Positions 1,784 to 63,487 are shown, counted from the first letter of the stretch. The stretch is 64,000 nt of DNA from a bacterium (GCA_030619905.1 JAUXAO010000003.1:54119-118118); one strand, 5' to 3'. The notes: generated from the sequence alone by a model not told the origin. Numbers and translations are program-made.

Positions 1784-4700
1784 ATGACTAATTTAATGAA
1801 AAAAATTGTAGCAATTGCTACAGGATTGACTTTCGCAGCAATGCTTTTCCCGGTTGTACCGGTTCAAGCATTAACTGCTGAAGAACTTCAAGAACAGATT
1901 GAGGCTTTACAAGCAGATTTAGATGAACTACTCGCTCAATTAGCTGAACTTACAGGCGAAGAGGAAGAAGAGGAAGTTGAATGCTCCTGTACTTTCACCA
2001 GAAGTCTTTATCCTGGTGTATCAAGAGGCGATGATGTAAAATGTTTGCAGGAATATCTCAATGACTCAGGACATACCTTAGCTGAGTCAGGTGCTGGCTC
2101 TCCTGGTTCAGAAACCACTTATTTTGGTTCTTTAACCAGAGCAGCCGTTAAGGTCTGGCAAGATGCTAATGATGTAGAGTATGGTGATTGGTGGGGCTAT
2201 TTTGGTCCTATTTCTCAAGCCAAATATGATACAACTTGCGCAGTAGGCGAACAAGAAGAAGAAGAAGAAGAGGAAGAAGTTGGAGAAGGTCTGACAGTAG
2301 CTTTGGCTGATGACAATCCAGGCGCAACAACAATTGTTGCTGATTCAACTGGCACTGCAGATAGTGCTCAGTCAATGATTCCTTTCTTAAAAGTTAAACT
2401 CACTAACGGTGATGAATCTGAGGTTAAAATTACTCAGATTAACTTCAAGAGAAGTGGAATTTCCTCTGATTCTGATACTTCCCAGGCCTATCTTTACGAA
2501 GGCGACACTCTTTTAGCTGATTACAGTTCATATTCAGATGCTGTTTTGACTTTCTCAAAATCAGCTGGATTAGTTACTATTCCTGCTGGCGAGTCAAAAA
2601 CAGTTACTTTGAAATGTGACTTAGTCAATGATGCTAGCTCTGGAAAAACCATTCGCTTTAGTGTTGATTCAGCTGATGATGTTGTTTCTGACGCTTCATC
2701 TGTCAATGGCACTTTTACCTTAATGGGCAATTATATGTCAACAGCCGTGACAACTGATGTTGGTCAGTTGACTGTGGCTACCACCACAGCGGCTGGAGGA
2801 ACTGTTGATCCTCAGGATGGTCTTGAGATATATAATCTCAACCTGACTGGGTCTGACCAAAAGTTGGAAGTTCGGAAGATAAAATTCACTAACATTGGTT
2901 CAACCGCTGCTAGTGACTTACAGAACTTCAAACTTTATGATGGTGGAACCCAGATAGGAGACACTATTGAAGAGATGGAGGCTGATAAGACAGTAACCTT
3001 TGACTTAACTGACAGCCCGCTTGTTATTGATAAAGGTGTGACCAAGAATCTTCATCTTAAGGCAGATATTGTTTCAGGAACAGACAGAACATTCCAATTT
3101 AGTGTTCAAGAAATGACTGATATTTCAGTTTATGATACTGGATATGGAATTTATATTAAGCCGAACAAGGCAGATTCCTGGACAGTATTTAAGATGACTG
3201 CATCTACCATTAACACTGGTAAGTTGACTATGACTAGATCTGCTACTTCACCTTCAACAAATGTAGCCTTAGGTGCTACCAATGTTACTGTAGCTGAGTT
3301 TGATCTTAAAGCTACTGGTGAAGACACTAAGATTACAACAATGGTTGTTAGGGTATATGGAACTATTACTACGGATGACTTATATCAAGGTAAGATTTAT
3401 TTTGACGGATCTCAAAAATCTACTACTGATACTGAGTTTGACAGTAATGCTACGGATGTTAGTACTGATGAGAATAGCTTTACTTTCGGCAACACCTTTA
3501 TTGTTCCGGCTGACGGCACTGTTTACAGCTTAAAGATTATATCTGATATAAAGAAGGGAACGAGTCTAGCATCTGATGCTGGTGAAAACTTTACTATTAA
3601 GATTAGTTCAATCACTGCTGTAGGAAAAACTTCTTTAGCAACTGTAAGCGTTGGTACAGTTACTGGTCATCAATTGACTATTACTTCAGGTACTTTATCA
3701 GCTGCCAAGAACGAGGCCTATCCTAACTGGACATCTGCTAACTCAACTGGAGTAGCCGGAGCAACTGAAGCTTTAGTTGGTTCATTTGTAGTAACAGCTG
3801 GTGCTTCTGAAGGTGCTGACATCACTTCTCTTAAAATGAGATATAGCACTACTACCAATAGTACTCTTCAGAATATGAAGCTTTACAGTGGCACCAAAGA
3901 GTCAGGAACTCAGATTGGTTCAACCTTAGGCACATTTTCAGCTAGTGCAAGTGCAGGTACCAACGAGTACACTTTCTACCCATCACCTTATATTAGCTTA
4001 GCAGCTGGTACACAGTTTGTTTTGAATGTTTATGCTGATATTTTGACTGGTGCTCCATCAACTGATCAGGGAACTAGCACTTTATGTGAGGTTAATGGTG
4101 TTGGTAAGGTAACAGCAAGTTCTGTTAACTACCAGATTGACGCAGATGGCCAAACCATTTATATTGCTGGTGCTGGATCGATTGCTTTAACTGAAGATTC
4201 TTCTTCTCCAGTGAGCGATATAGTAATAATGGGAGGTACTGAACAAACTTTTGCTGTCTTCAAGTATTCAGCCAGTACTTCAGCTGAAAACATAAAGATT
4301 ACCAGTATTGTTGCTACAACTACTGCGACTTTGAATTCTGATATTAAAAATATCAAATTAGTAGGAAATGGGCTTGATGCAAGTATTGCTTCTTTGGATT
4401 CAAGTGGTGTTGCTACCTTTAATTTAGCGAGTAATCCTTGGATTATTACAGCTGGAATAGAAGAAAAAGTAACGATTAAAGCAGATATTGGAACTTATGG
4501 TTATGCTGCATCTGGAGATACCGTACTGTTTGCAATTGCAACAACTACTTATGAGGGAGCAATAAGCGGAGGTTCAACTAGTACTGTTGCTGCGGCCAAC
4601 TTGAAAGAAGCTGGCGGTACGATGACAATTTACAGGACTAGACCTACTGTTACTTTTGTTGGTCCTACAAGCGGTAGTTTGACTGATGGAACTAAAACCT

Positions 4701-12268: not shown

Positions 12269-12383
12269 AAAAAATTTAGAAATAATTTATCAGTGGTTAA
12301 AACCAAAGATGAAATTTAAAGATTTAATTAAAATAATAGTTGATGCTGATTTAAAAGTTTGGGGAGTAAAAAAGTAAATTTAG

Positions 12384-13322
<939 letters not shown>

Positions 13323-33422: not shown

Positions 33423-34573
33423 GAGTATTATATATTACCACCAAGAGTGAAGCCGGCGGAGCCCAAACTCATATTTATCAATTGAGCAAGTATTTTATTG
33501 AAAGAGGAAATGAAGTAGCAATAATGAGTTATCCAGGAGGGTGGTTAGAGGAAGAGACAAAAAAATTGGGAATAAAATTTTATCCGAGTAAATATTTTTC
33601 AAATAGGCCAAATCCAATTAGTATTCTGAGAGCAGTGAAAGAAATTAGAAAAGTGATAGAGGATTTTGAGCCGGATTTGGTTAGTTGTCATAGCACAGCC
33701 GCAGGATTTTTTGGTCGGATAACAGTTAGGAATAAAATTCCAACTACTTTTACTGCTCATGGCTGGGCCTTTACTAAAGGAACTCCTTTTTTAAGAAAAT
33801 GTTTAGCGATTTTAATTGAAAAAATTGCTGGGAAATTTTGCTCAAAAATTATTTGTGTTTCAGATTTTGACAGAAATTTAGCTTTGGAATACAGAATTAT
33901 TTCGGAAGAAAAAATAATAGTTATTCATAATGGAGTTGAGATTCAACCCGATAAAAAAACATTAAACATCGAACATCCAACATCAAGCACTCAGATTGTC
34001 TTTGTCGGAAGGTTAGCTCAGCCAAAAGACCCTTTATTATTACTTAAATCATTTAATAGTTTACCTTCTGAATTAAAAGATAAAGCTCAAATTTCTATTA
34101 TTGGAGAGGGACCGAAAAGAAAAGGGCTGGATAAATTTATCGAAAAGAATAGATTGGAAGAAAAAGTAAAATTATTAGGGAGTATATCAAGAGAAAAAGT
34201 TTTTGAAGTCCTGAGAAAATCTGATATTTTTGTCTTGATTTCTAATTGGGAAGGTTTTCCTTATACTATTATTGAGGCAATGAGTTCTAGTTTGGCTATT
34301 ATTGCTTCGGAGGTTGGAGGAATTAAAGAGGCAATTGATAACTGTGGGATTCTAGTCAAAAGAGGGGATGAAGAGGGAATAAAAAATGCTTTGGAGAAAT
34401 TATTAAAAAACCCATCTTTAATTAAAGAGATGGGCGAGAGAGCAAAAGAAAAGGCAAAAAAAGAATTTTCTTTAGATAAAATGCTGGAGGAAACAGAGAG
34501 GATTTATAAATCAGTTACCCGAGCGACAGCGAGGGGCGAAGATGAACGGAGTTCATCGCCTATTCCCTTGTAA
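33419..34573 (+). CDS. Glycosyltransferase family 4 (GT-B, group 1)
   Basis: GGAQTHIYQLSKYF N-terminus and the NWEGFPYTIIEAMSSSLAIIASEVGGIKE (E-x7-E) region. Confidence 0.85.
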   Translation: MRVLYITTKSEAGGAQTHIYQLSKYFIERGNEVAIMSYPGGWLEEETKKLGIKFYPSKYFSNRPNPISILRAVKEIRKVIEDFEPDLVSCHSTAAGFFGRITVRNKIPTTFTAHGWAFTKGTPFLRKCLAILIEKIAGKFCSKIICVSDFDRNLALEYRIISEEKIIVIHNGVEIQPDKKTLNIEHPTSSTQIVFVGRLAQPKDPLLLLKSFNSLPSELKDKAQISIIGEGPKRKGLDKFIEKNRLEEKVKLLGSISREKVFEVLRKSDIFVLISNWEGFPYTIIEAMSSSLAIIASEVGGIKEAIDNCGILVKRGDEEGIKNALEKLLKNPSLIKEMGERAKEKAKKEFSLDKMLEETERIYKSVTRATARGEDERSSSPIPL

Positions 34574-35870
34574 AAAACAATTGAAAGGTCTTAAGTAATA
34601 TTCCCAGGTCCAGAAATAAGGACCTGTTTTTTATATAATAAAGGTCGTATTGAAACTTTTCATGGCTGTCTTCTACTGTTCTTCCGTATCTGAATTTTAT
34701 CTGAGCCCAACCAGTGAAACCCGGTCTGACAATATGACGGAGATGGTAGTGGGGGATTTGCCTTTCCAGTTTTTTAACAAATTCCGGTCTTTCCGGTCTC
34801 GGGCCTGATAAAGAGATATCTCCTTTCAATACATTAAGCATCTGAGGGAGTTCGTCTAAATGGATATTTCTTAAGAATCTGCCAATCTTTGTTATTCTTG
34901 GGTCGTCTTTTTCAGCCCATTTTGCTTTTCCTTTTTCTGCCCCCACTTTCATTGACCGGAACTTAGCCAACCAGAATTCCTTTCTGTCTTTACCCACTCT
35001 TTTTTGTCTATAGAAAACCGGTCCCTTATCTTCAAGCTTGATTAAAATTGCAAAAATCAGCCATAAAGGAGAGGTGATTATAATTATCAAAGAAACCAAA
35101 ATTATATCTACGAACCTTTTCAGTTTATCGTAAATTTTTTTCTCACCTTCGCTTAGATTTTCCAAAAACCAGGTTTGGGAGACAAAATCAATGGGAATTT
35201 TATGAAGAAGAATCTCATAGGCCAGAGCTAAATCCATGAAGTTTATTCTTAAAGGCAGGCATTTATAGAGCCCTTGGGTTAATTTTGAAGGACTTTTAAT
35301 ATTCTGGGCGAGAATTAGAGTTTCGATTTTTCCTCTTTTAACTTGGGAGAATATATTATTTTTTAGATTTAAGAATTTGACGAATTTATAGCCAAGTTGA
35401 GGCTGATTTTCAATTTCTCGAACTAATTTTTGAGCTAGAGGATTTTTTCCTAGGAAAGCCACATTTTGCAGATAGAAAGAAGAAAAAAGCTGATAAAACA
35501 ATCTTCGCCAGATTAAAAACAAAATTCCTAATATTGATATATTTATAACAAGGTTTGTTTTCGGACTAATTTCAAAAAGAGGAAGCAAATAAAAGAAACT
35601 TGTTCCCAGTAATAAACAAGCCAGAAAACATTGTCCAGCCCTGGCTAAAAATTCAAGTTTAGGCCTGATTAGATTAAGGTCATAAAGGCCAAAGATGTAG
35701 AATAAAATAAACCAGCAGAAGTAGAGGAGGGAAAAAGGAAAAAAGTGCTCTCGAAAAATTTCCCATCTAAAATTCCCCCAAAAACCGAAATAGCAGGTTA
35801 AAAGCAAAGCCAGATAAGCTAGAACTATATCTCCGGCAATTAAAACGGTTTGTCTTAATTCTCTTAGCAT
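34560..35870 (-). CDS. Polyprenyl-phosphate hexose-1-phosphate transferase (WbaP-like initiating sugar transferase)
   Basis: PVFYRQKRVGKDRKEFWLAKFRSM...DPRITKIGRFLRNIHLDELPQMLNVLKGDISLSGPRPERPEF, plus N-terminal TM helices. Confidence 0.9.
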   Translation of the reverse strand: MLRELRQTVLIAGDIVLAYLALLLTCYFGFWGNFRWEIFREHFFPFSLLYFCWFILFYIFGLYDLNLIRPKLEFLARAGQCFLACLLLGTSFFYLLPLFEISPKTNLVINISILGILFLIWRRLFYQLFSSFYLQNVAFLGKNPLAQKLVREIENQPQLGYKFVKFLNLKNNIFSQVKRGKIETLILAQNIKSPSKLTQGLYKCLPLRINFMDLALAYEILLHKIPIDFVSQTWFLENLSEGEKKIYDKLKRFVDIILVSLIIIITSPLWLIFAILIKLEDKGPVFYRQKRVGKDRKEFWLAKFRSMKVGAEKGKAKWAEKDDPRITKIGRFLRNIHLDELPQMLNVLKGDISLSGPRPERPEFVKKLERQIPHYHLRHIVRPGFTGWAQIKFRYGRTVEDSHEKFQYDLYYIKNRSLFLDLGILLKTFQLFFTRE

Positions 35871-51615: not shown

Positions 51616-51623
51616 TCAAAAAT

Positions 51624-51968
51624 CCTAGTAAGTCGATAAGCCGAATTCTGTCGAGGGTAATCATTTATCTAGCCCCTTGATTACTCTTGGGGTCGAGCGA
51701 AGTACCTTTCTCCTTGGACAAATCCGGAGATTGGCCAAAGAGTTTCTTCTTGCACCGGATAAGGATTTAGCCGTTTCACCCCTCGATTACTCGAGGACTA
51801 CCCCATCGTTTGACGGGGTGCTCAGCCTTTCGGCCTTGCACGTCTCTGTTCGCACCTCTAACCTCACGGTCGACGGGCGTTACCCGCTATCTTCTTTGGT
51901 GTTCGGACTTTCCTCTATCAATTCTGTCCAAAAGGACAAAATTGACAGCGATTACCTAACTTACTAGG
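51624..51968 (-). ncRNA. rnpB: RNase P RNA (bacterial type A)
   Basis: The reverse complement carries GAGGAAAGUCCGAACACC (plus-strand 51898-51915) and ACAGAAUUCGGCUUAU (51636-51651). The P1 stem is cctagtaagt/acttactagg at the two ends. The region is locally GC-rich. Confidence 0.9.
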
Positions 51969-56099: not shown

Positions 56100-56170
56100 G
56101 CGAGTGTAGTATAATGGTATTATATAACCTTCCCAAGGTTCAGACGAGGGTTCGATTCCCTTCACTCGCT
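56100..56170 (+). tRNA. tRNA-Gly (anticodon CCC)
   Basis: Acceptor gcgagtg/cactcgc. Anticodon loop ttCCCaa. T arm gaggg-ttcgatt-ccctt. No encoded CCA. Confidence 0.85.
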
Positions 56171-56180
56171 TTATTCTTCT

Positions 56181-56252
56181 GCCAGTGTAGCTCAGTGGTA
56201 GAGCAGGGCTTTCGTAAAGCTCAGGTCGTCGGTTCAAGTCCGACCGCTGGCT
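56181..56252 (+). tRNA. tRNA-Thr (anticodon CGU)
   Basis: Acceptor gccagtg/cgctggc. D arm gctc-agtggta-gagc. Anticodon loop ttCGTaa. T arm gtcgg-ttcaagt-ccgac. Confidence 0.9.
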
Positions 56253-56261
56253 CTTCTATCT

Positions 56262-57365
56262 ATGAAAGAAATCCAGGAGAAAATTAAAGATTTAGAAATG
56301 CGATTTAAAGACTTAAATGCCCGATTCGACTTGGATGAAAAAATGAAAGAGATAGGAGATTTGAAAAAAAAGGCAGATAAGTCGGATTTTTGGCAGGATC
56401 AGAAAAAAGCATCTGAGATATCTCAGAAAATAGCTCTTTTGGAAAGTAATATTGAGAATCTAAGGAATCTGGGAAAAGAGATCGAAGATCTTAAAGAAAT
56501 ATCTAAACTTGTAAAAGAGGAAAGTGAAGAATTTAAGGAGTTAGAAAAGAATTACAAGGTTTTGGAGGAAAAGATTAAAAAAGGAGAAGAAAGAGTTTTT
56601 CTTTCTGGTCCTTACGATAAACTGTCAGCCATTATTACTATTCAGGCTGGGGCCGGAGGAAGAGACGCTGAAGATTGGGTAGCCATGCTTTTAAGAATGT
56701 ATCAGAAATACTGCGATATTCAGGGATTAAAAACAAAGATTTTATATCAGAATTTTGGCGAAGGAGGAGGACCAGAAGGCAGAATTGGCATCAAAGAAGT
56801 TTCAACGAAAATTAAAGGAAATTATGTATATGGTCTTTTAAAAAATGAACAAGGCATTCATCGACTAGTCCGCATATCGCCTTTTTCTGCTCAAGCACTT
56901 CGTCATACTTCTTTTGCTAAAGTAGAAGTTTTACCAGAAATTCCAGAGTCTGACATGTCGAAAATAGAAATCAAATCAGAGGATTTAAGGGTTGAAACAT
57001 TCCGGGCTTCAGGACCTGGCGGGCAACATGTAAACAAACGAGATTCAGCTGTCCGAATTATTCATTTGCCAACAGGTCTTAAAGCAAGTTCTCAGGAAGA
57101 AAGACTACAAGGATTAAACCGAAAAAAAGCAATGCAGGTTTTAATGACAAAGCTTCTCAGGCTTTCTCAACAGGAGAAAGAAAAAGAGATTAAAAAAGTT
57201 AAAGGGGAAAAGATTTCTGCCAGTTGGGGAAATCAACGCCGCTCCTATGTCTTACATCCATACAAACTTTGTAAAGATATTCAAACTGGAGTTGAAACCT
57301 CAAACGTTGAAGCAGTGCTTGATGGAGATTTGGATAAATTCATTCAGGCCGAAGTAAAAATATGA
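56262..57365 (+). CDS. prfB: Peptide chain release factor 2
   Basis: SPF tripeptide (RISPFSAQ) and GGQ (SGPGGQHVNK). A single uninterrupted ORF with no +1 frameshift site. Confidence 0.95.
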   Translation: MKEIQEKIKDLEMRFKDLNARFDLDEKMKEIGDLKKKADKSDFWQDQKKASEISQKIALLESNIENLRNLGKEIEDLKEISKLVKEESEEFKELEKNYKVLEEKIKKGEERVFLSGPYDKLSAIITIQAGAGGRDAEDWVAMLLRMYQKYCDIQGLKTKILYQNFGEGGGPEGRIGIKEVSTKIKGNYVYGLLKNEQGIHRLVRISPFSAQALRHTSFAKVEVLPEIPESDMSKIEIKSEDLRVETFRASGPGGQHVNKRDSAVRIIHLPTGLKASSQEERLQGLNRKKAMQVLMTKLLRLSQQEKEKEIKKVKGEKISASWGNQRRSYVLHPYKLCKDIQTGVETSNVEAVLDGDLDKFIQAEVKI

Positions 57366-58978: not shown

Positions 58979-59052
58979 TGCCGGGTCATCTAACGGTAGG
59001 ATTGATGCCTCTGGAGCATCCCATCTTGGTTCGAATCCAAGCCCGGCAGCCA
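58979..59052 (+). tRNA. tRNA-Gln (anticodon CUG) with encoded CCA
   Basis: Acceptor tgccggg/cccggca (U1-A72). Anticodon arm gatgc-ctCTGga-gcatc. T arm cttgg-ttcgaat-ccaag. Discriminator g followed by cca. Confidence 0.85.
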
Positions 59053-59081
59053 TCACTGAGTGTAGTTTGATAGACCGAGAC

Positions 59082-59133
59082 GGGTTCGAGTCCTAGCATC
59101 GGAACAGGCTTGTGCTTGGTTCTGGCGACTGAG
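59082..59133 (+). repeat. Island repeat unit, copy A
   Basis: gggttcgagtcctagcatcggaacaggcttgtgcttggttctggcgactgag. The 18-nt core caggcttgtgcttggttc (59105-59122) is identical to 62278-62295. Preceded by gaccgaga (59073-59080) and followed by hairpin ttctggcgac-tga-gtcgcccagaa. Confidence 0.8.
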
Positions 59134-59264
59134 TCGCCCAGAACAATGATCTGGGTGATTTTATTTTGACAAACCACCCCAAAAATGCCAAAATCAAGGT
59201 AGTTTTCAGCTTTAAGGAAAAAACTTATATAACGACTTCCAAAATCTTAATTATTACTAAGTAA

Positions 59265-61106
59265 ATGCGGCTTTTAAGTTTCCAAATTAAAAATTATCGA
59301 TCAATTATCAACTCTGGTGTAGTAAAATTATCTGAAAAAGATAATGTTTCTGTCTTTGCCGGTCAGAACGAATCAGGGAAAAGTGCAATTCTTAGAGCAC
59401 TCTACGATTTTGAACGTGAGGAGTTCGAAGAAGATTCTTTACCTTTCTCTATTAGAGAAAGTCCAGATCAACCAAATCAAATCGTAAGTTGTACCTACAA
59501 AATTGGTCCTGACGAGGATATCGCTGAATTACTTTCAGAGATAACGATTGATGAACATGATATTAAGATTGAAGAAGGCCAAAATATACTTGATCCAAAT
59601 AAGATTAAGAAGATAAAAAAATTTACCATAACTCGGATCAATGGCAAAGAAAAAGTTCAGATAACTATTGATAATAATTCTTTTAAAATTTTTCAAGCAG
59701 CAATTCTTAATAAACCGCAACAATCAGATGAGGGAGGGAAAGACAAAGAAAAAGAAAAAGGTGAGGAAAAAGAAACCACTGATACGAAAGAAAAATACAT
59801 TTCTTTTTCGGATGATCAGAATGCAGATGTAGCACAAATTTTTTGGCTTATCACGCCAAATATTGTTTTTTTCGATGATTTTTGCGACCTGCTGCCGGAT
59901 AAAATATTTCTCTCCGCACTTAAAGAGAAAAAAACTGAGACAAAAGGATATCGTGCTGTTAAAAGTTTAGAAAAGATACTTAACACAGACTTTCTTAAAA
60001 AAGACTCGGAAACAGATCCCATCAGGAGAACAAAAGAAGATAAAGAAAATACTGAATTATCGATTAATTTTCAGCAAGATTGGGGGCAAAGAATACATGA
60101 CGAGAATGAAGTACTTGTAAAATATGATTTTCAAAAAAGAAACGGTGAGGGCGAAAATGGTTCATACATTAATTTTTATGTTGAAACAAGAGAAGGGGAA
60201 CCTCTGCCACCCAAACAACGTAGTAAAGGATTGATTTGGTTCTTATCATTATGGCTGGAACTAAAGGCGCAAGATATCAAAAACGAAGATTTAATTCTTT
60301 TATTAGATGAACCGGATCAGCATCTACACGTGAAGGCACAAAAAGACATATTAAAATTAATTAATAAACTAGCGAGCGAAGATGATCAGGTTATTTACGC
60401 CACTCATTCACCTTATTTAATAGAAGTCGATTATTTGAACAGGGTGAAACTTGTTTTAAACATTAAAGATGGTGGGACACAGATAGAAGATATCGTAACG
60501 AGTAAAATCGATACGGAATATAAGAAAGATGCGCTACAACCAATTGCAAATGCAATAGGTTTACATGTTAGCGAATTTTCTCCATTAGGCAATAAAAATA
60601 TTATCCTCGAAGGAATTTCGGATTATTACTATTTTTCCGCAATGAAAAAAATACTAAATCGAAAGGGAGATTACTATTTTGTTCCCGGAATTGGAGTCAG
60701 ACAAATTAATAATCTTATTTCTTTATCAATAGGTTATGGTTTAAATTGGATTTCAATTATCGATGACGATCCTGAGAAGGGAGGAAAAGATTCTAAGAGA
60801 AAATTCGATGAAATAAAAGATTACGTTTTCGATGGAGATGAAGCTAAAACTCAACAAAAAGTCTTTATTCTTAAGGGAATTACAGGTATTGAGAATATGT
60901 TTACTTACGATGACTTTAAACTTATTGACCCTAAAATTAATCGTAGCAGAGATAAGGTAGATGTAGTTGGACGGAAAAGAAAAGTACTTTTTTCAAAGTT
61001 GTTTTTTGAAAAAGTAAATAACAGAGAAATTACAGAGAGGAATATATCGAAAACTGCTAAAGATAATTTTAATAAAGCATTTGATTTCATCGGTCAAAAT
61101 TTTTGA
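59265..61106 (+). CDS. OLD-family nuclease: ABC/AAA_15-type ATPase fused to a Toprim domain
   Basis: N-terminal FQIKNYRSI...FAGQNESGKSAILRAL (Walker A). QRSKGLIWFLSLWL. LLLDEPDQHLH (Walker B). ATHSP. C-terminal Toprim-like IILEGISDYYYF and ISIIDDDPEKGG. Confidence 0.75.
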   Translation: MRLLSFQIKNYRSIINSGVVKLSEKDNVSVFAGQNESGKSAILRALYDFEREEFEEDSLPFSIRESPDQPNQIVSCTYKIGPDEDIAELLSEITIDEHDIKIEEGQNILDPNKIKKIKKFTITRINGKEKVQITIDNNSFKIFQAAILNKPQQSDEGGKDKEKEKGEEKETTDTKEKYISFSDDQNADVAQIFWLITPNIVFFDDFCDLLPDKIFLSALKEKKTETKGYRAVKSLEKILNTDFLKKDSETDPIRRTKEDKENTELSINFQQDWGQRIHDENEVLVKYDFQKRNGEGENGSYINFYVETREGEPLPPKQRSKGLIWFLSLWLELKAQDIKNEDLILLLDEPDQHLHVKAQKDILKLINKLASEDDQVIYATHSPYLIEVDYLNRVKLVLNIKDGGTQIEDIVTSKIDTEYKKDALQPIANAIGLHVSEFSPLGNKNIILEGISDYYYFSAMKKILNRKGDYYFVPGIGVRQINNLISLSIGYGLNWISIIDDDPEKGGKDSKRKFDEIKDYVFDGDEAKTQQKVFILKGITGIENMFTYDDFKLIDPKINRSRDKVDVVGRKRKVLFSKLFFEKVNNREITERNISKTAKDNFNKAFDFIGQNF

Positions 61107-61151
61107 ACGGGAGCTAGAGAAGGTTTTAATAGTATACAAAATATATACCGC

Positions 61152-61193
61152 GCCCGCTTCGCGGGCTTAAAATAACCCCGACCGAGAGGGGTT
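61152..61193 (+). other. Two GC-rich hairpins after the OLD gene
   Basis: gcccgc-ttc-gcgggc (61152-61166) and aacccc-gaccgaga-ggggtt (61174-61193). The loop of the second is the island 8-mer gaccgaga. Confidence 0.5.
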
Positions 61194-61246
61194 AAATTCG
61201 CCCCAGAAAAGTGTCCAAGAGACCCTTATAGGACTTGATTCTTAAA

Positions 61247-61274
61247 GGTTCCAGACCGACTAGGGGAGCAGGCT
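61247..61274 (+). repeat. Island repeat unit, copy C (3'-truncated)
   Basis: ggttccagaccgactaggggagcaggct differs at 2 of 28 nt from copy B (62256-62283). Upstream similarity gagacccttata.../...cttaaa also parallels copy B. Confidence 0.75.
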
Positions 61275-61341
61275 ATTATTAGGTATAGAGAGACTGAAAC
61301 GTATAAATTATTTTAAAAAATATTTTTCTCGTAAGTAAACC

Positions 61342-62160
61342 ATGAATATAGATTACAATAATTTTAAACAATGGTGCATCCTAAAAGAACCAAAGTTGGG
61401 TCATTATGTTAATAATGATCGCATTTCGTATAGCATCTTATTTATATGGATCGGCTCATTTATTCTTTCTGCCTTAGTTTTTAAAAATGTAATAATTGAA
61501 TTATTACAGAATGAGAAAATTGTAGAAAATCTTAGCACTTTGTTTGGTTTTATTTTTTCAATGTTTGTAGTAATTATTTTTTCTAAAGTATTTCGATTAC
61601 CAATGAACAAAACCGAATTCCTTTCTTGTTTGTTAAATAAAATTTCTAAAGAAATAGAATTGTATCAAAGTGAAAAGGATAGAAAAGAATTAATGAAGGA
61701 TTTAAAAATATTTAAGCGATATTCGAAATTTGATTATAAATTTACACATACAAATTTATTCAAAAAGGAAAACAAAATACAAAAGAGTTTTTTTAATCTT
61801 CTCAATAGTCTTTCCGATAGGATTTACTACAAAATAAATGAAAACAAGAAAGATGAAATAAACTTAGAAGATATTCAAAAATTAGCCTTTAGTATTTATA
61901 TAGATGGTGATGAAAAAACTCAAATTCTCAATAAAATAGTTAAAGATATCCCAGATATTAACGAAATAGAATTTAAACTATTTTTTCCTTTAAAAAAATT
62001 ATATAAAGACAACTTATTTAAAATTATAACAATAACTGTGTCACTCGCATTGATTTTCTATTTTTTTGCATATAGGTTTTTAGGCATCGACAAAAATTAT
62101 ACATTTATGGGATTTATTACCCTAATCGGCGTAGTTGCTTATATAATATTTAAAAAATAA
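61342..62160 (+). CDS. Four-TM membrane protein with a central Lys/Glu-rich helical domain, function unknown
   Basis: 272 aa. TM pairs at both ends (ILFIWIGSFILSALVF, LFGFIFSMFVVIIF ... IITITVSLALIFYFFAY, FMGFITLIGVVAYIIF). No recognised motif. Confidence 0.5.
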   Translation: MNIDYNNFKQWCILKEPKLGHYVNNDRISYSILFIWIGSFILSALVFKNVIIELLQNEKIVENLSTLFGFIFSMFVVIIFSKVFRLPMNKTEFLSCLLNKISKEIELYQSEKDRKELMKDLKIFKRYSKFDYKFTHTNLFKKENKIQKSFFNLLNSLSDRIYYKINENKKDEINLEDIQKLAFSIYIDGDEKTQILNKIVKDIPDINEIEFKLFFPLKKLYKDNLFKIITITVSLALIFYFFAYRFLGIDKNYTFMGFITLIGVVAYIIFKK

Positions 62161-62254
62161 TTTCTTTTTAATTTTTTATTTTTAGTTAAAATACTTTTGA
62201 CCGAGATGCATGGATGAGACACCCTTAAAAGCCCTCAATTTCCCCTTAAAACCC

Positions 62255-62306
62255 GGGTTCGAGACCGACTAGGGAAGCAGGCTTGTGCTTGGTTCAAGCG
62301 ACCGAG
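62255..62306 (+). repeat. Island repeat unit, copy B
   Basis: gggttcgagaccgactagggaagcaggcttgtgcttggttcaagcgaccgag. Flanked by gaccgaga at 62199-62206 and 62300-62307. Followed by hairpin agcgac...gtcgct, which covaries with copy A (ggcgac/gtcgcc). Confidence 0.8.
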
Positions 62307-62479
62307 AGGCATTAAAAGTCGCTAAGAAGGCGGTTTTTGGTTGCTCTGAGCAAAGCGAAGAGGTAGAATAAAAAATCAGAGTTGACGCCATTTTTCTTAC
62401 AAAAAAGTTTTAACAAAACCACGAAGACAAGTTGAGTAGATGATTTTAATATAAAAATTTTAGTTGGCTCAATACTACA

Positions 62480-63346
62480 ATGGATTTCTTTTTCGACTTA
62501 TTTACCACTAGAGAACAGGCGATTATTATTTGGATCGGCATTTTCTTAGTTTGGGTGTTGTTTCAAAAGAATATACGAACGGCAATTTTCGGTTTGTTTA
62601 GGGCATTTTTTCAAAAGCAAATTGCCGTAGCGTTCGCGGCAATGTTTTTGTATGTAGCCTTGATAGTTTTTTTGTTCTCCAAAATTCAATTGTGAGATAT
62701 TTCTTTATTAAAAAACACAATCTTTTGGCTTCTCGGTACGGCATTTGTGTTATTTATGAACTTAAATAGAGCACACGAAGATGACCACTATTTCAGAAAA
62801 ATAGTATCAGATAACTTGAAATTAGTTTTAGTCCTCGTTTTCATTATCAATTTCTATACCTTACACCTACTAGCCGAACTAATTTTGGTGCCAGTACTTT
62901 TTATGATTGTCGCTATGAGTGCGGTTGCCGAAATGAAAGAAGGATACGCGCCGGTGAAGAAATTGGTAGATTTCATTCTGGGAGCTTGGGGTATTTTCCT
63001 TGTTGTTTTTACTCTTTCAAGCGTATTAAATGACTACCAAAATCTGCTGACGATGGACAATCTCCGTACTTTTCTACTGCCGCTATATTTAACACTTGCT
63101 TTTTTACCATTTTTGTACAGCTTCGCAATTTTCATGGCGTATGAGAATATTTTTGTTCGTCTGAATATTTCGATAGGTAAAAGAGATGAAGAGCTTTTGA
63201 GAATTGCGAAGCGTAAGATGTTTTGTGCTTTTGGTTTCAATTTAGGGAAATTGAATAAATTTTCAAAAGAAAACACAGTCAAACTCTGGAGTTTGAAGAA
63301 CGAGGAAGAATTGAGAGAGATTATTGATCAATTTGAGAAAAACTAA
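62480..63346 (+). pseudogene. Multi-pass membrane protein interrupted by one in-frame TGA (62693-62695): pseudogene or read-through
   Basis: ORFs 62480-62695 and 62747-63346 are in the same frame. The sequence between them (DISLLKNTIFWLLGTAFVLF) is open and hydrophobic like its flanks. Confidence 0.55.
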
Positions 63347-63487
63347 TTTTAAAGAAAGTAAGGACGTTTCTGACTTTTTTAAAAACCAAGCAATTTTAGC
63401 CCATCGTCAAGGCGGAGCAGGTAAAGATAAAAAAATCGCCAAAAAGGCAGTTTTTTGTTATAATAGAATAATTAATAATTCACATTT

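Follow-up and report, generated by a model that had tools for sequence, protein, structure and literature searches.

Downstream of a tRNA-Gln gene in a bacterial DNA stretch of 64 kb (the whole stretch analysed, hereafter the window), a short sequence occurs in three direct copies, raising the question of what these repeats are. An original prediction, made from the sequence alone, had offered three readings: att-type scars of serial integration next to the tRNA, recombination sites of a cassette system whose recombinase is encoded elsewhere, or an ncRNA or cis-regulatory element. The first is the best supported, because the island starts at the last base of tRNA-Gln and its units end in mimics of a tRNA 3' end, and because strain breakpoints fall at the unit end, which serine recombinase genes abut in relatives. 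We thus regard it as fairly likely that the repeats represent junction modules belonging to a hot spot of site-specific integration, which lies at the tRNA-Gln 3' end of a Patescibacteria-type genome, where gene cassettes were probably spliced next to the tRNA by large serine recombinases (LSRs) like those found in related uncultured bacteria.

A strain-variable island at the tRNA-Gln 3' end

Synteny was compared with four close relatives (FtsX 90–96% identical). It stopped at nt 59049 against L007/L008 and at nt 59050 against L009/L010, i.e., at the discriminator base (or +1) of tRNA-Gln, and picked up again at nt 63448 against L007/L008, on which the resumption was judged, L009 and L010 ending before that position. 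Gene content after tRNA-Gln differed among all three distinct relatives (L007/L008, which have the same genes and were counted as one, L009 and L010), and in L007 and L009 a terminator sits directly after the tRNA. The region therefore behaves as a tRNA-targeted island, starting at the tRNA 3' end and having strain-variable content with alternative states in relatives. Its features are:

58979–59052, +: tRNA-Gln(CTG) (ARAGORN, Rfam)
59028–59050, +: genuine left half, the last 23 nt of tRNA-Gln, GGTTCGAATCCAAGCCCGGCAGC
59050/59051: junction J0, at the tRNA-Gln end
59051–63447: strain-variable island, beginning at the tRNA-Gln 3' end
59051–59080, +: right-half linker CATCACTGAGTGTAGTTTGATA, then a GACCGAGA box; same order after tRNA-Gln in L040 (CAACACATGCTAAGTCAGGTGACTGAGA)
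59081–59105, +: type 3 (short) pseudo-tRNA 3' end CGGGTTCGAGTCCTAGCATCGGAAC, the left part of copy A (repeat family D1/D2)
59105/59106: junction J1
59106–59134, +: right half AGGCTTGTGCTTGGTTCTGGC with degenerate box GACTGAGT, holding most of the 18-mer
59131–59171, +: intrinsic-terminator-like hairpin with CCCAGA/TCTGGG core, then a T run (terminator scan, minimum-free-energy fold, L084 homologue)
59265–61106, +: cargo 1, 613-aa OLD/AriA/GajA-like ABC ATPase (Pfam AAA_15, AAA_21; PADLOC AriA, Old, GajA)
61167–61269, +: unit C, full copy with an insertion, TTAAAATAACCCC-GACCGAGA-...-GGTTCCAGACCGACTAGGGGAGC (nhmmer family profile, E = 4e-9; alignment)
61269/61270: junction J2
61270–61300, +: AT-degenerate right half AGGCTATTATTAGGTATAGAGAGACTGAAAC (read from the sequence and compared with other right halves)
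61342–62160, +: cargo 2, 272-aa predicted membrane protein (ORF list; weak Pfam match to DUF6707, no PADLOC match)
62186–62278, +: unit B, full type 1 copy, TTAAAATACTTTT-GACCGAGA-...-GGTTCGAGACCGACTAGGGAAGC (nhmmer family profile, E = 1.5e-18; alignment)
62278/62279: junction J3
62279–62312, +: right half AGGCTTGTGCTTGGTTCAAGC, GACCGAGA and GGCAT, the first bases of a unit
62318–62345, +: terminator-like GTCGCTAAGAAGGCGGTTTTT, homologous to the terminator directly after tRNA-Gln in L007 and L009
62480–63346, +: cargo 3, two ORFs (71 aa and 199 aa) that share a reading frame and are split by a single TGA (ORF list, sequence; no match in Pfam or PADLOC)
63397–63456, +: putative degenerate fourth junction, ...CAAGGCGGAGC/AGG at 63418/63419, with a terminator at 63431–63456

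The fourth junction is a possible, weak assignment, detectable homologues being confined to its terminator part. Homologues of cargo 1 (68–72% identity) are carried by islands that also encode a recombinase, at tRNA-Gln in L116 and at tRNA-Ala in L111. Cassette content downstream of tRNA-Gln is mostly of accessory or defence type, the family cargo including OLD/AriA-like, ThsB-TIR, LexA-methylase fusion, HEPN and Fic proteins.

The repeat module and its mimicry of the tRNA end

The three direct copies were recovered at nt 59081–59133 (A), 61247–61274 (C) and 62254–62306 (B), with 79% identity between A and B over 53 nt, 26 of 28 nt matching between C and B, and an exact 18-mer present twice in the window against an expectation of 0.03. 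The repeat unit is thus real and longer than first described, B extending over nt 62186–62278 and C over nt 61167–61269, both beginning TTAAAATA....GACCGAGA. Copy C had been considered truncated; instead, after AGGCT it runs on as an AT-degenerate copy of the right half. B and C are full copies of a module of ~90 nt, which recurs in at least 57 metagenome loci, and A is its short form, with GACCGAGA joined directly to the tRNA-like end.

The order within the module is GACCGAGA, ~55 nt, GGTTCSAGACCGA and 10 nt ending in AGC, and it closes with a 23-nt segment resembling a tRNA 3' end in the same register as tRNA-Gln. The left half closes with a T-loop-like GGTTCNAGNCC and a further 12 nt whose last bases are A(G/A)C, a 23-nt register (T-loop plus 12 nt) kept in all left halves; in full units ~65 conserved bases, from GACCGAGA on, precede the tRNA mimic. 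The right half consists of ~21 nt and then a further GACCGAGA box. Every junction shows this left|right composition, the right half being common to A and B and the left half to B and C. The 18-mer originally highlighted lies within the right half, and also follows genuine tRNA-Gln ends elsewhere.

As for the recurrent GACCGA motif, exact GACCGAGA was confirmed at nt 59073, 61180, 62199 and 62300, while only near-variants occur at nt 59127, 61254 and 62263; two further places were found in the 64 kb (expectation for the whole window, 0.56). The boxes are direct repeats. Those bracketing B had been likened to a target-site duplication, an idea we discarded: one is the invariant start of the unit, and the other belongs to a junction right half conserved in many loci, hence no duplication is involved.

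As to the relation to tRNA-Gln, the last 12 nt of copy A differ from a genuine tRNA-Gln end at 3 positions, and types 1 and 2 differ from genuine ends at 5–6 of the last 12 positions, a divergence that counts against the integration reading. The right half comes directly after a genuine tRNA-Gln in L078 and L040, and the arrangement of linker and GACCGAGA is also found after unit ends in L040 and L098, as are homologues of the right half at nt 59106–59134 in L059, L079, L084, L097, L100 and L104. In L090, the 23-nt tRNA-Gln end of L092 recurs exactly as an orphan fragment, with a right half and then a terminator behind it; no such exact fragment is present in the window. Seven of the eight co-oriented tRNAs upstream of units in the profile-search sources are tRNA-Gln. 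Terminators of the GTCGCTAAGAAGGCGGTTTTT type follow many units, with one further example in the window.

A pattern scan of metagenome contigs retrieved 84 matches in 80 loci, ~57–60 of these loci being true homologues, with an identical 70-nt span in 50 of the 84 matches; a profile search gave 76 matches in 64 sources, including the window, where all matches fall in the island. Conservation of the family stops at AGC, and the ~65-nt upstream part contains the invariant elements GACCGAGA, AAAA and CCCTTAAA. LSRs normally require only ~40–50 bp; the strong conservation of this upstream part is therefore unaccounted for, which counts against the integration reading.

Strain breakpoints and serine recombinases at the unit end

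Breakpoints between strains coincide exactly with the unit end, just after AGC. In the one occupied/empty pair found, L048 and L100 are 99.7% identical as far as GGGGAGC and then diverge, with a recombinase gene in L048 and a right half in L100. Moreover, L064 and the first unit of L071 have only the upstream flank in common, and L057 and the second unit of L071 only the downstream flank. No circular junction or excision product was seen. A candidate imperfect dyad, ACCGA-N20-TCGGT, surrounds AGC|AGG in L100-type sites and is missing at sites with CATCAC-type right halves.

An LSR gene is placed at the AGC point, or at a tRNA-like end of the same form, in four related loci. In L048, L105 and L104, recombinase genes of 505–508 aa (one cut by the contig end) terminate within a unit end or tRNA-like end or immediately next to it, the gene in L104 adjoining a type 3 module like that of copy A; this abutment concerns only three of ~57 unit-bearing loci, and in L040 the recombinase is near, not abutting, the unit. 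The gene of a relative likewise ends inside or against a tRNA-like end in L106 and L109, and others overlap genuine tRNA-Gln (L116) and tRNA-Ala (L111). Resolvase, Recombinase and Zn_ribbon_recom domains were identified by Pfam in the L104 and L040 proteins. The C-terminal tails after NWL are the translation of the reverse complement of the target, DSNP corresponding to the T-loop, and the tails of P0123 and P0149 agree with the L109 and L106 junctions. The islands of other lineages, with the LSR gene at a tRNA-like end (L106–L110), at tRNA-Gln (L116) or at tRNA-Ala (L111), have tRNA or tRNA-like ends without the full unit. Among the ORFs screened next to the ~57 unit-bearing loci, the serine type was the sole recurring recombinase family, and these genes sit in larger elements with primase or Rep genes.

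As is typical of LSR sites, the crossover is short and long direct repeats are missing from the element ends: a search for att-type direct repeats in L106, L108 and L109 was negative, and L116 and L111 have no second copy of the tRNA end. A recombinase gene beside the site was found in relatives only. Recombinases are encoded within the related islands L040, L111 and L116, whereas tblastn detected no serine recombinase in the window, and Pfam and PADLOC no recombinase domain in the island ORFs (outside the island, Pfam covered 10 other ORFs of the window). This absence, the small number of unit-bearing loci with an abutting recombinase and the lack of full units in the other lineages all weigh against the integration reading.

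From these comparisons, DNA exchange would occur between left and right halves at AGC|, with LSRs as the likely agents, which would catalyse it at these particular sites. In this recombinase family, the final codons of the gene (..N-W-L..) would extend past the crossover and into the tRNA or its mimic. Insertion after insertion may then have built up the co-oriented array tRNA-Gln | mini-module A | OLD-type ATPase | C | membrane protein | B | further ORF | terminator, from which the recombinase gene would since have been lost.

Alternative readings and known systems

The junctions might instead be the functional sites, rather than mere scars, of a dedicated integron-like cassette platform, at which single-gene cassettes would be taken up, cut out and rearranged downstream of tRNA-Gln by a recombinase working in trans. 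The full site would then be the unit plus the right half, ~110–130 bp with three direct GACCGA boxes, similar to res or attC. The cassette system with a remote recombinase originally proposed is compatible with the lack of a serine recombinase in the window and with co-oriented arrays of 2–4 units, separated by cassettes of one to three genes, in ten sources including the window. Left and right halves assort independently, as in A/B and B/C and in the locus pairs having one flank in common, and the equal make-up of all junctions would render the sites equivalent; conservation also far exceeds a minimal serine-recombinase site. Nevertheless, neither a circular cassette nor a cassette recurring in two arrays was found, no linked recombinase gene holds a fixed position beside the arrays, and many units occur singly. 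The recombinases seen are, moreover, of the large serine integrase type, lying in larger elements, and such integrases normally act on unlike attP and attB sites. We therefore consider the platform unlikely. Equally doubtful is its broader implication, that Patescibacteria have a previously undescribed integron-like gene-capture system using a serine recombinase supplied in trans and a universal site of ~110–130 bp; if true, one site type, made of the tRNA-Gln-end mimic, three GACCGA boxes and the right half, would allow single-gene defence cassettes to be acquired, accumulated and reordered downstream of tRNA-Gln.

Integrons (IntI, attI, attC) do resemble the arrays in their co-oriented, mostly single-gene cassettes split by a repeated site, some arrays having no nearby recombinase. 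Unlike attC, however, the unit is no imperfect palindrome and does not fold as a single strand on either strand; no IntI-type tyrosine recombinase was seen among the ORFs screened, and the anchor is a tRNA gene instead of attI. Likeness to the res sites of Tn3/gamma-delta serine resolvases lies in the length of ~110–130 bp, the crossover near one end and the recognition boxes on one side. In res sites the boxes are dimer-binding inverted repeats, whereas the candidate boxes here are direct repeats and the enzymes found belong to the large serine integrase type.

Less probable still is a structured or processed RNA element, such as a tRNA-like 3' module (for RNase P, RNase Z or the CCA-adding enzyme) or an intergenic cis-regulator, whose role as a recombinase target would be secondary, like that of tRNA genes. 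Primary sequence is strongly conserved across ~57–60 loci from many samples, the nearest upstream ORF is co-oriented with the unit in 47 of 49 cases, the unit lies a median of 69 nt past its stop codon with a terminator often next, and the L100/L048 pair places the unit on the target side of the insertion. Type 2 units form a T-arm-like stem, CTCGG/CCGAG, in which C/U wobble variants occur. Against this stands the near absence of structure. Rfam gave no family match to the unit even at E up to 5–10, and ARAGORN predicted no tRNA or tmRNA in the units. RNAalifold found no pairs with all sequences on the plus strand and otherwise one to three short stems (0 to −5.5 kcal/mol), three within type 1, neither strand giving a hairpin across the unit. 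Hand-proposed helices pair in only 49–77% of cells, with covariation no better than slid controls, and the folds of units B and C are no more stable than those of shuffled sequence (z = +1.15 and −0.78, respectively).

The covarying hairpin first reported for A and B did not hold either, its stems being absent from the minimum-free-energy folds of both. Its 3' arm in A is part of the CCCAGA/TCTGGG terminator, also present in L084, and in B part of another terminator, GTCGCTAAGAAGGCGG, matched in L073, L076 and L104; the two arms thus belong to different terminators, and the G:C to A:U 'compensation' compares non-homologous arms. Similarly, the stem around GACCGAGA described in C is paired in only 49% of cells over 60 family members. 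A known structured RNA was accordingly rejected as an identification.

That the unit takes no part in recombination, being either a dispersed repeat of the REP or MITE kind, selfish or neutral, or a shared terminator module, is very improbable: copies can be several per contig, intergenic, after unrelated genes and at times beside housekeeping-type ones (MltG in L059, radical SAM and flavodoxin in L074, which also speak against the integration reading), but they cluster downstream of tRNA-Gln, are absent from the other 59 kb of the window and from the close relatives L007–L009, have no terminal inverted repeats, palindrome or target-site duplication, the GACCGAGA boxes being parts of the unit, and end where synteny breaks and recombinase genes lie.

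Returning to integration at the tRNA-Gln end, two known systems are close to it. SCC and SCCmec of staphylococci are composite islands built by LSRs (CcrAB) at the 3' end of rlmH (orfX). Shared aspects are serine recombinase insertion at the 3' end of a conserved gene (here suggested by the related loci), elements bounded by short repeated attachment sequences, accessory cargo and tandem accretion into arrays with some members lacking a recombinase. The SCC target is a protein-coding gene, whereas here it is a tRNA gene or tRNA-end mimic; in addition, the module, at ~90–130 nt, is much longer and recurs in conserved form in many genomes, the reading frame of the recombinase spans the crossover, a cassette often consists of one gene, and the hosts are Patescibacteria. 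Classical tRNA-targeted islands and integrative elements, including islands of the tycheposon type in Prochlorococcus, rely in most cases on tyrosine integrases and carry direct repeats that reproduce the tRNA end exactly, while the enzyme associated here is an LSR and the repeats are diverged mimics inside a longer conserved module. Common to both are an island start at the tRNA 3' end, strain-variable content, defence-type cargo and, probably, tRNA-3'-like repeats at internal and distal boundaries, the orphan fragment of L090 being an exact one.

A hypervariable island at the 3' end of tRNA-Gln

The gene order prfB-ftsE-ftsX-tRNA-Gln (CTG, 58979–59052) is followed by a group of island genes and then by a glycosyltransferase gene. 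In the relatives L007/L008, L009 and L010, whose FtsX is 90–96% identical, synteny with the window extends to 59049/59050, that is, the end of tRNA-Gln, and is regained from 63448 in L007/L008, the contigs L009 and L010 stopping before that point. Between these positions gene content differs in each distinct relative, thus defining 59051–63447 as a hypervariable island attached at the last base of tRNA-Gln. The cargo genes are as follows.

Cargo genes of the island
First gene after tRNA-Gln: 613-aa ATPase, OLD/AriA/GajA-like
Second gene after tRNA-Gln: 272-aa membrane protein
62480–63346: ORFs of 71 aa and 199 aa in the same frame, with one TGA between them (62693–62695)

The genome encodes RF2 (56262–57365), so that the TGA at 62693–62695 should act as a stop codon; the interrupted frame is likely a pseudogene or a sequencing error. 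The different island of L007 ends (12325–12445) in two tRNA-end-like segments, GGTTCTAACG...GGAGC and GGTTCTAACG...CCCAGC, followed by a terminator, indicating that ends of this kind are left by the hot spot in L007 as well.

Other features of the region were recorded. The window tRNA-Gln has an encoded CCA (59050–59052), lying on the island side of the junction, and a G at position 37 (59013), while tRNA-Gln of L007 (10919–10991) and L008 is without an encoded CCA and carries an A at position 37. In the relative L011 (FtsX 89% identical; 2509–3540), ≈970 nt split tRNA-Gln after the D-arm and contain a 296-aa LAGLIDADG-type ORF; this interruption resembles an intron that carries a homing endonuclease. 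A LAGLIDADG_3 ORF also stops 3 nt short of tRNA-Gln in L040 (2006–2862). Between tRNA-Gly and tRNA-Thr, L007 (7527–8201) has ≈640 bases more than the window (56170–56261), including a 151-aa ORF, thus pointing to a second tRNA-proximal variable spot. In the window from 1 to 58000 nearly all genes lie on the plus strand, the exceptions being RNase P RNA (51621–51967) and a sugar transferase gene (34560–35870), and many encode glycosyltransferases or other functions of cell-envelope polysaccharides.

A repeat unit ending in a tRNA-Gln mimic

The three direct copies of the original prediction (A, B and C) are confirmed, with 79% identity between A and B across 53 nt and 26 of 28 nt matching between C and B. 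The exact 18-mer occurs twice in the window (0.03 expected), and GACCGAGA is in true excess: 0.56 exact sites would be expected in the entire 64 kb and six are present, four of which fall within this 3.3-kb stretch. The extents first described were too short, as B spans 62186–62278 and C 61167–61269, the two being alignable from TTAAAATA....GACCGAGA, across ≈55 nt, to GGTTCSAGACCGACTAGGGRAGC. Copy A is a short form, in which GACCGAGA is joined directly to GGGTTCGAGTCC.... The right half, which follows the junction, is common to A and B and the left half, which ends in the tRNA-like segment, to B and C, a pattern expected if exchange occurs between halves.

The island contains the following junctions. 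At J0 (59050/51) tRNA-Gln meets a right half. At J1 (59105/06) the short mimic A is joined to a right half, with a terminator and the OLD-type gene beyond it. At J2 (61269/70) unit C abuts a degenerate right half and then the 272-aa gene. At J3 (62278/79) unit B adjoins a right half, after which come a terminator and the interrupted ORF. A possible J4 (63418/19) would link a degenerate end to a terminator.

A single pattern scan of metagenome contigs, in which exact boxes were required, returned at least 80 loci, with ≈57–60 clear homologues among those listed; an identical 70-nt span between two boxes was found in 50 of the 84 matches listed. Two main unit types, GGTTCGAGACCGACTAGGGGAGC and GGTTCCAGACCGAGGTTGCCAGC, were distinguished. 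Conservation of the family ends at AGC, after which the sequence varies, being either an intrinsic terminator, or a right half (≈21 nt plus GACCGAGA, with the 18-mer), or unrelated. A profile search retrieved 76 copies, distributed over the window and 63 loci (64 sources in all); those of the window are confined to the island, and none was found in L007–L009, while L010 has one unit copy, 3' of its first island gene. Neither the strict unit pattern in viral contigs nor BLAST of unit B against phage and plasmid records gave a match. Exact 18-mers in species-representative genomes (5) and viral contigs (1) were discarded as chance matches, all in unrelated contexts. A loose three-box pattern gave 14 matches in viral contigs, none related to the unit and mostly lying in coding sequence of GC-rich contigs. 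Many metagenome copies have upstream an inverted repeat, AAATGAGACAC / GTGTCTCATTT (spacer 7–20 nt), and after it GTCTCATTT in one to four tandem copies (for example L059 13790–13846, L104 520–580 and L071 3790–3890), a module that the window copies do not have.

In 47 of 49 cases the unit and the ORF upstream of it point the same way, and co-oriented groups of two to four units occur in ten sources, window included. The arrangement of L078 (ftsX-tRNA-Gln, 5.6 kb of island genes, unit, one gene, unit) is like that of the window, and L040 combines tRNA-Gln with four units, two ThsB-TIR genes, a LexA-methylase fusion and a recombinase. Products of the cassettes that lie between units include HEPN and Fic proteins, membrane proteins of unknown function, MltG, and a set of radical-SAM and flavodoxin proteins.

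Every unit closes with 23 nt that keep the register of the tRNA-Gln end (GGTTCGAATCC + AAGCCCGGCAGC); over the last 12 positions, copy A has three mismatches to the genuine end and types 1 and 2 have five to six. Among co-oriented tRNAs upstream of units, seven of eight are tRNA-Gln. Moreover, the right half lies directly 3' of genuine tRNA-Gln in L078 and L040, and in L090 a right half and terminator come after an orphan fragment of 23 nt that matches the tRNA-Gln end of L092 exactly.

Serine recombinases and the AGC breakpoint

Clustering of all neighbour ORFs yielded one recombinase family. It numbers over 500 members at E < 1e-40, and records naming it come from Nealsonbacteria and Pacebacteria; the proteins of L104 and L040 have the Pfam domains Resolvase, Recombinase and Zn_ribbon_recom. 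The recombinase genes lie on the strand opposite to the unit, and their stop codon is contained in the unit end (L048, L105) or in an A-type end (L104). As far as GGGGAGC, identity between loci L048 and L100 is 99.7%; beyond it the former continues with the recombinase gene and the latter with the right half, making the two an occupied/empty pair. Two more locus pairs have one flank in common, upstream only or downstream only, and break at AGC.

At the recombinase C-termini, ..NWL precedes a tail that is the translated reverse complement of the target (DSNP corresponding to the T-loop). These tails vary with the target, are often QDSNP or ESNP, the reverse translation of the tRNA T-loop, and in two cases match their own junctions exactly. 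The attachment crossover hence falls at AGC|CA, as in the window, and the reading frames of the family run across it into tRNA ends (P0121–P0240; L104 2600–2660; L106 11497–11530; L109 6022–6050). Direct repeats were sought at the ends of the recombinase elements and none was found. Homologues of the window OLD-like protein (68–72% identity) are cargo of such islands at genuine tRNA-Gln in L116 and at tRNA-Ala in L111, each of which has a recombinase gene that overlaps its tRNA.

The best-supported explanation is that serine recombinases would insert serially at tRNA-Gln or at its mimics, the recombinase gene being lost from the island after the insertions. Serial insertion does not explain why ≈65 nt of the upstream portion, invariant boxes included, are conserved, a length beyond what such recombinases require. 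This excess would fit a dedicated cassette site, a reading we consider unlikely, and it leaves room for a role of the upstream portion as unstructured RNA or in protein binding. While tRNA-linked islands and serine-recombinase arrays (SCC-type) are already known, the long conserved junction module, the combination of tRNA-end mimicry with a recombinase frame crossing the site, and the spread of the module in Patescibacteria are new; our literature search found no paper describing them. Patescibacterial genomes are tiny, and few mobile elements have been recognised in them; the module, combined with the large family of recombinases, would account for the turnover of their defence and accessory genes. 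The motif GACCGAGA...GGTTCSAGACCGA...AGC| would serve as a simple marker for variable islands in fragmented metagenome assemblies, and recombinases with natural target sites known to the base would be of use in tool development.

RNA readings of the unit

As far as can be tested, the unit is not an RNA. No Rfam family was retrieved at the gathering threshold, nor at E up to 5–10, and ARAGORN detected neither tRNA nor tmRNA in the units. RNAalifold on 60 sequences gave no pairs and, after splitting by type and strand, at most three short stems; the sole signal of a mutual-information scan came from columns separating the two types. Every helix proposed by hand paired in 49–77% of cells, with covariation not above slid controls. 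The covarying hairpins proposed originally are missing from minimum-free-energy folds, and their 3' arms are non-homologous, being parts of two different terminators.

A tmRNA or permuted tmRNA had been prompted by TTAGCTTAA upstream of many copies (Leu-Ala-stop) and by the T-arm-like unit end, and was ruled out by ARAGORN and Rfam, which found none, and by a 3' end unable to pair with a GGGG 5' end. Also rejected were an acceptor/T-arm minihelix and a tRNA whose variable arm is long, the candidate stems pairing in just 49–77% of cells, and a TnpB/IscB guide-RNA scaffold was dismissed because the upstream genes are mutually unrelated. The case illustrates that conservation, GC richness and a tRNA-like motif in an intergenic repeat do not by themselves imply an RNA.

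LOOT RNA (RF03000) was rejected as the identity of the unit, from which it differs in sequence. It does occur inside serine-recombinase elements (L106 6016–6139, L108 3045–3160, L109 1075–1188), and in L108 and L109 it has AAA_25 and primase-like (Zn_ribbon_DnaG) genes close by, suggesting a role in replication of these elements.
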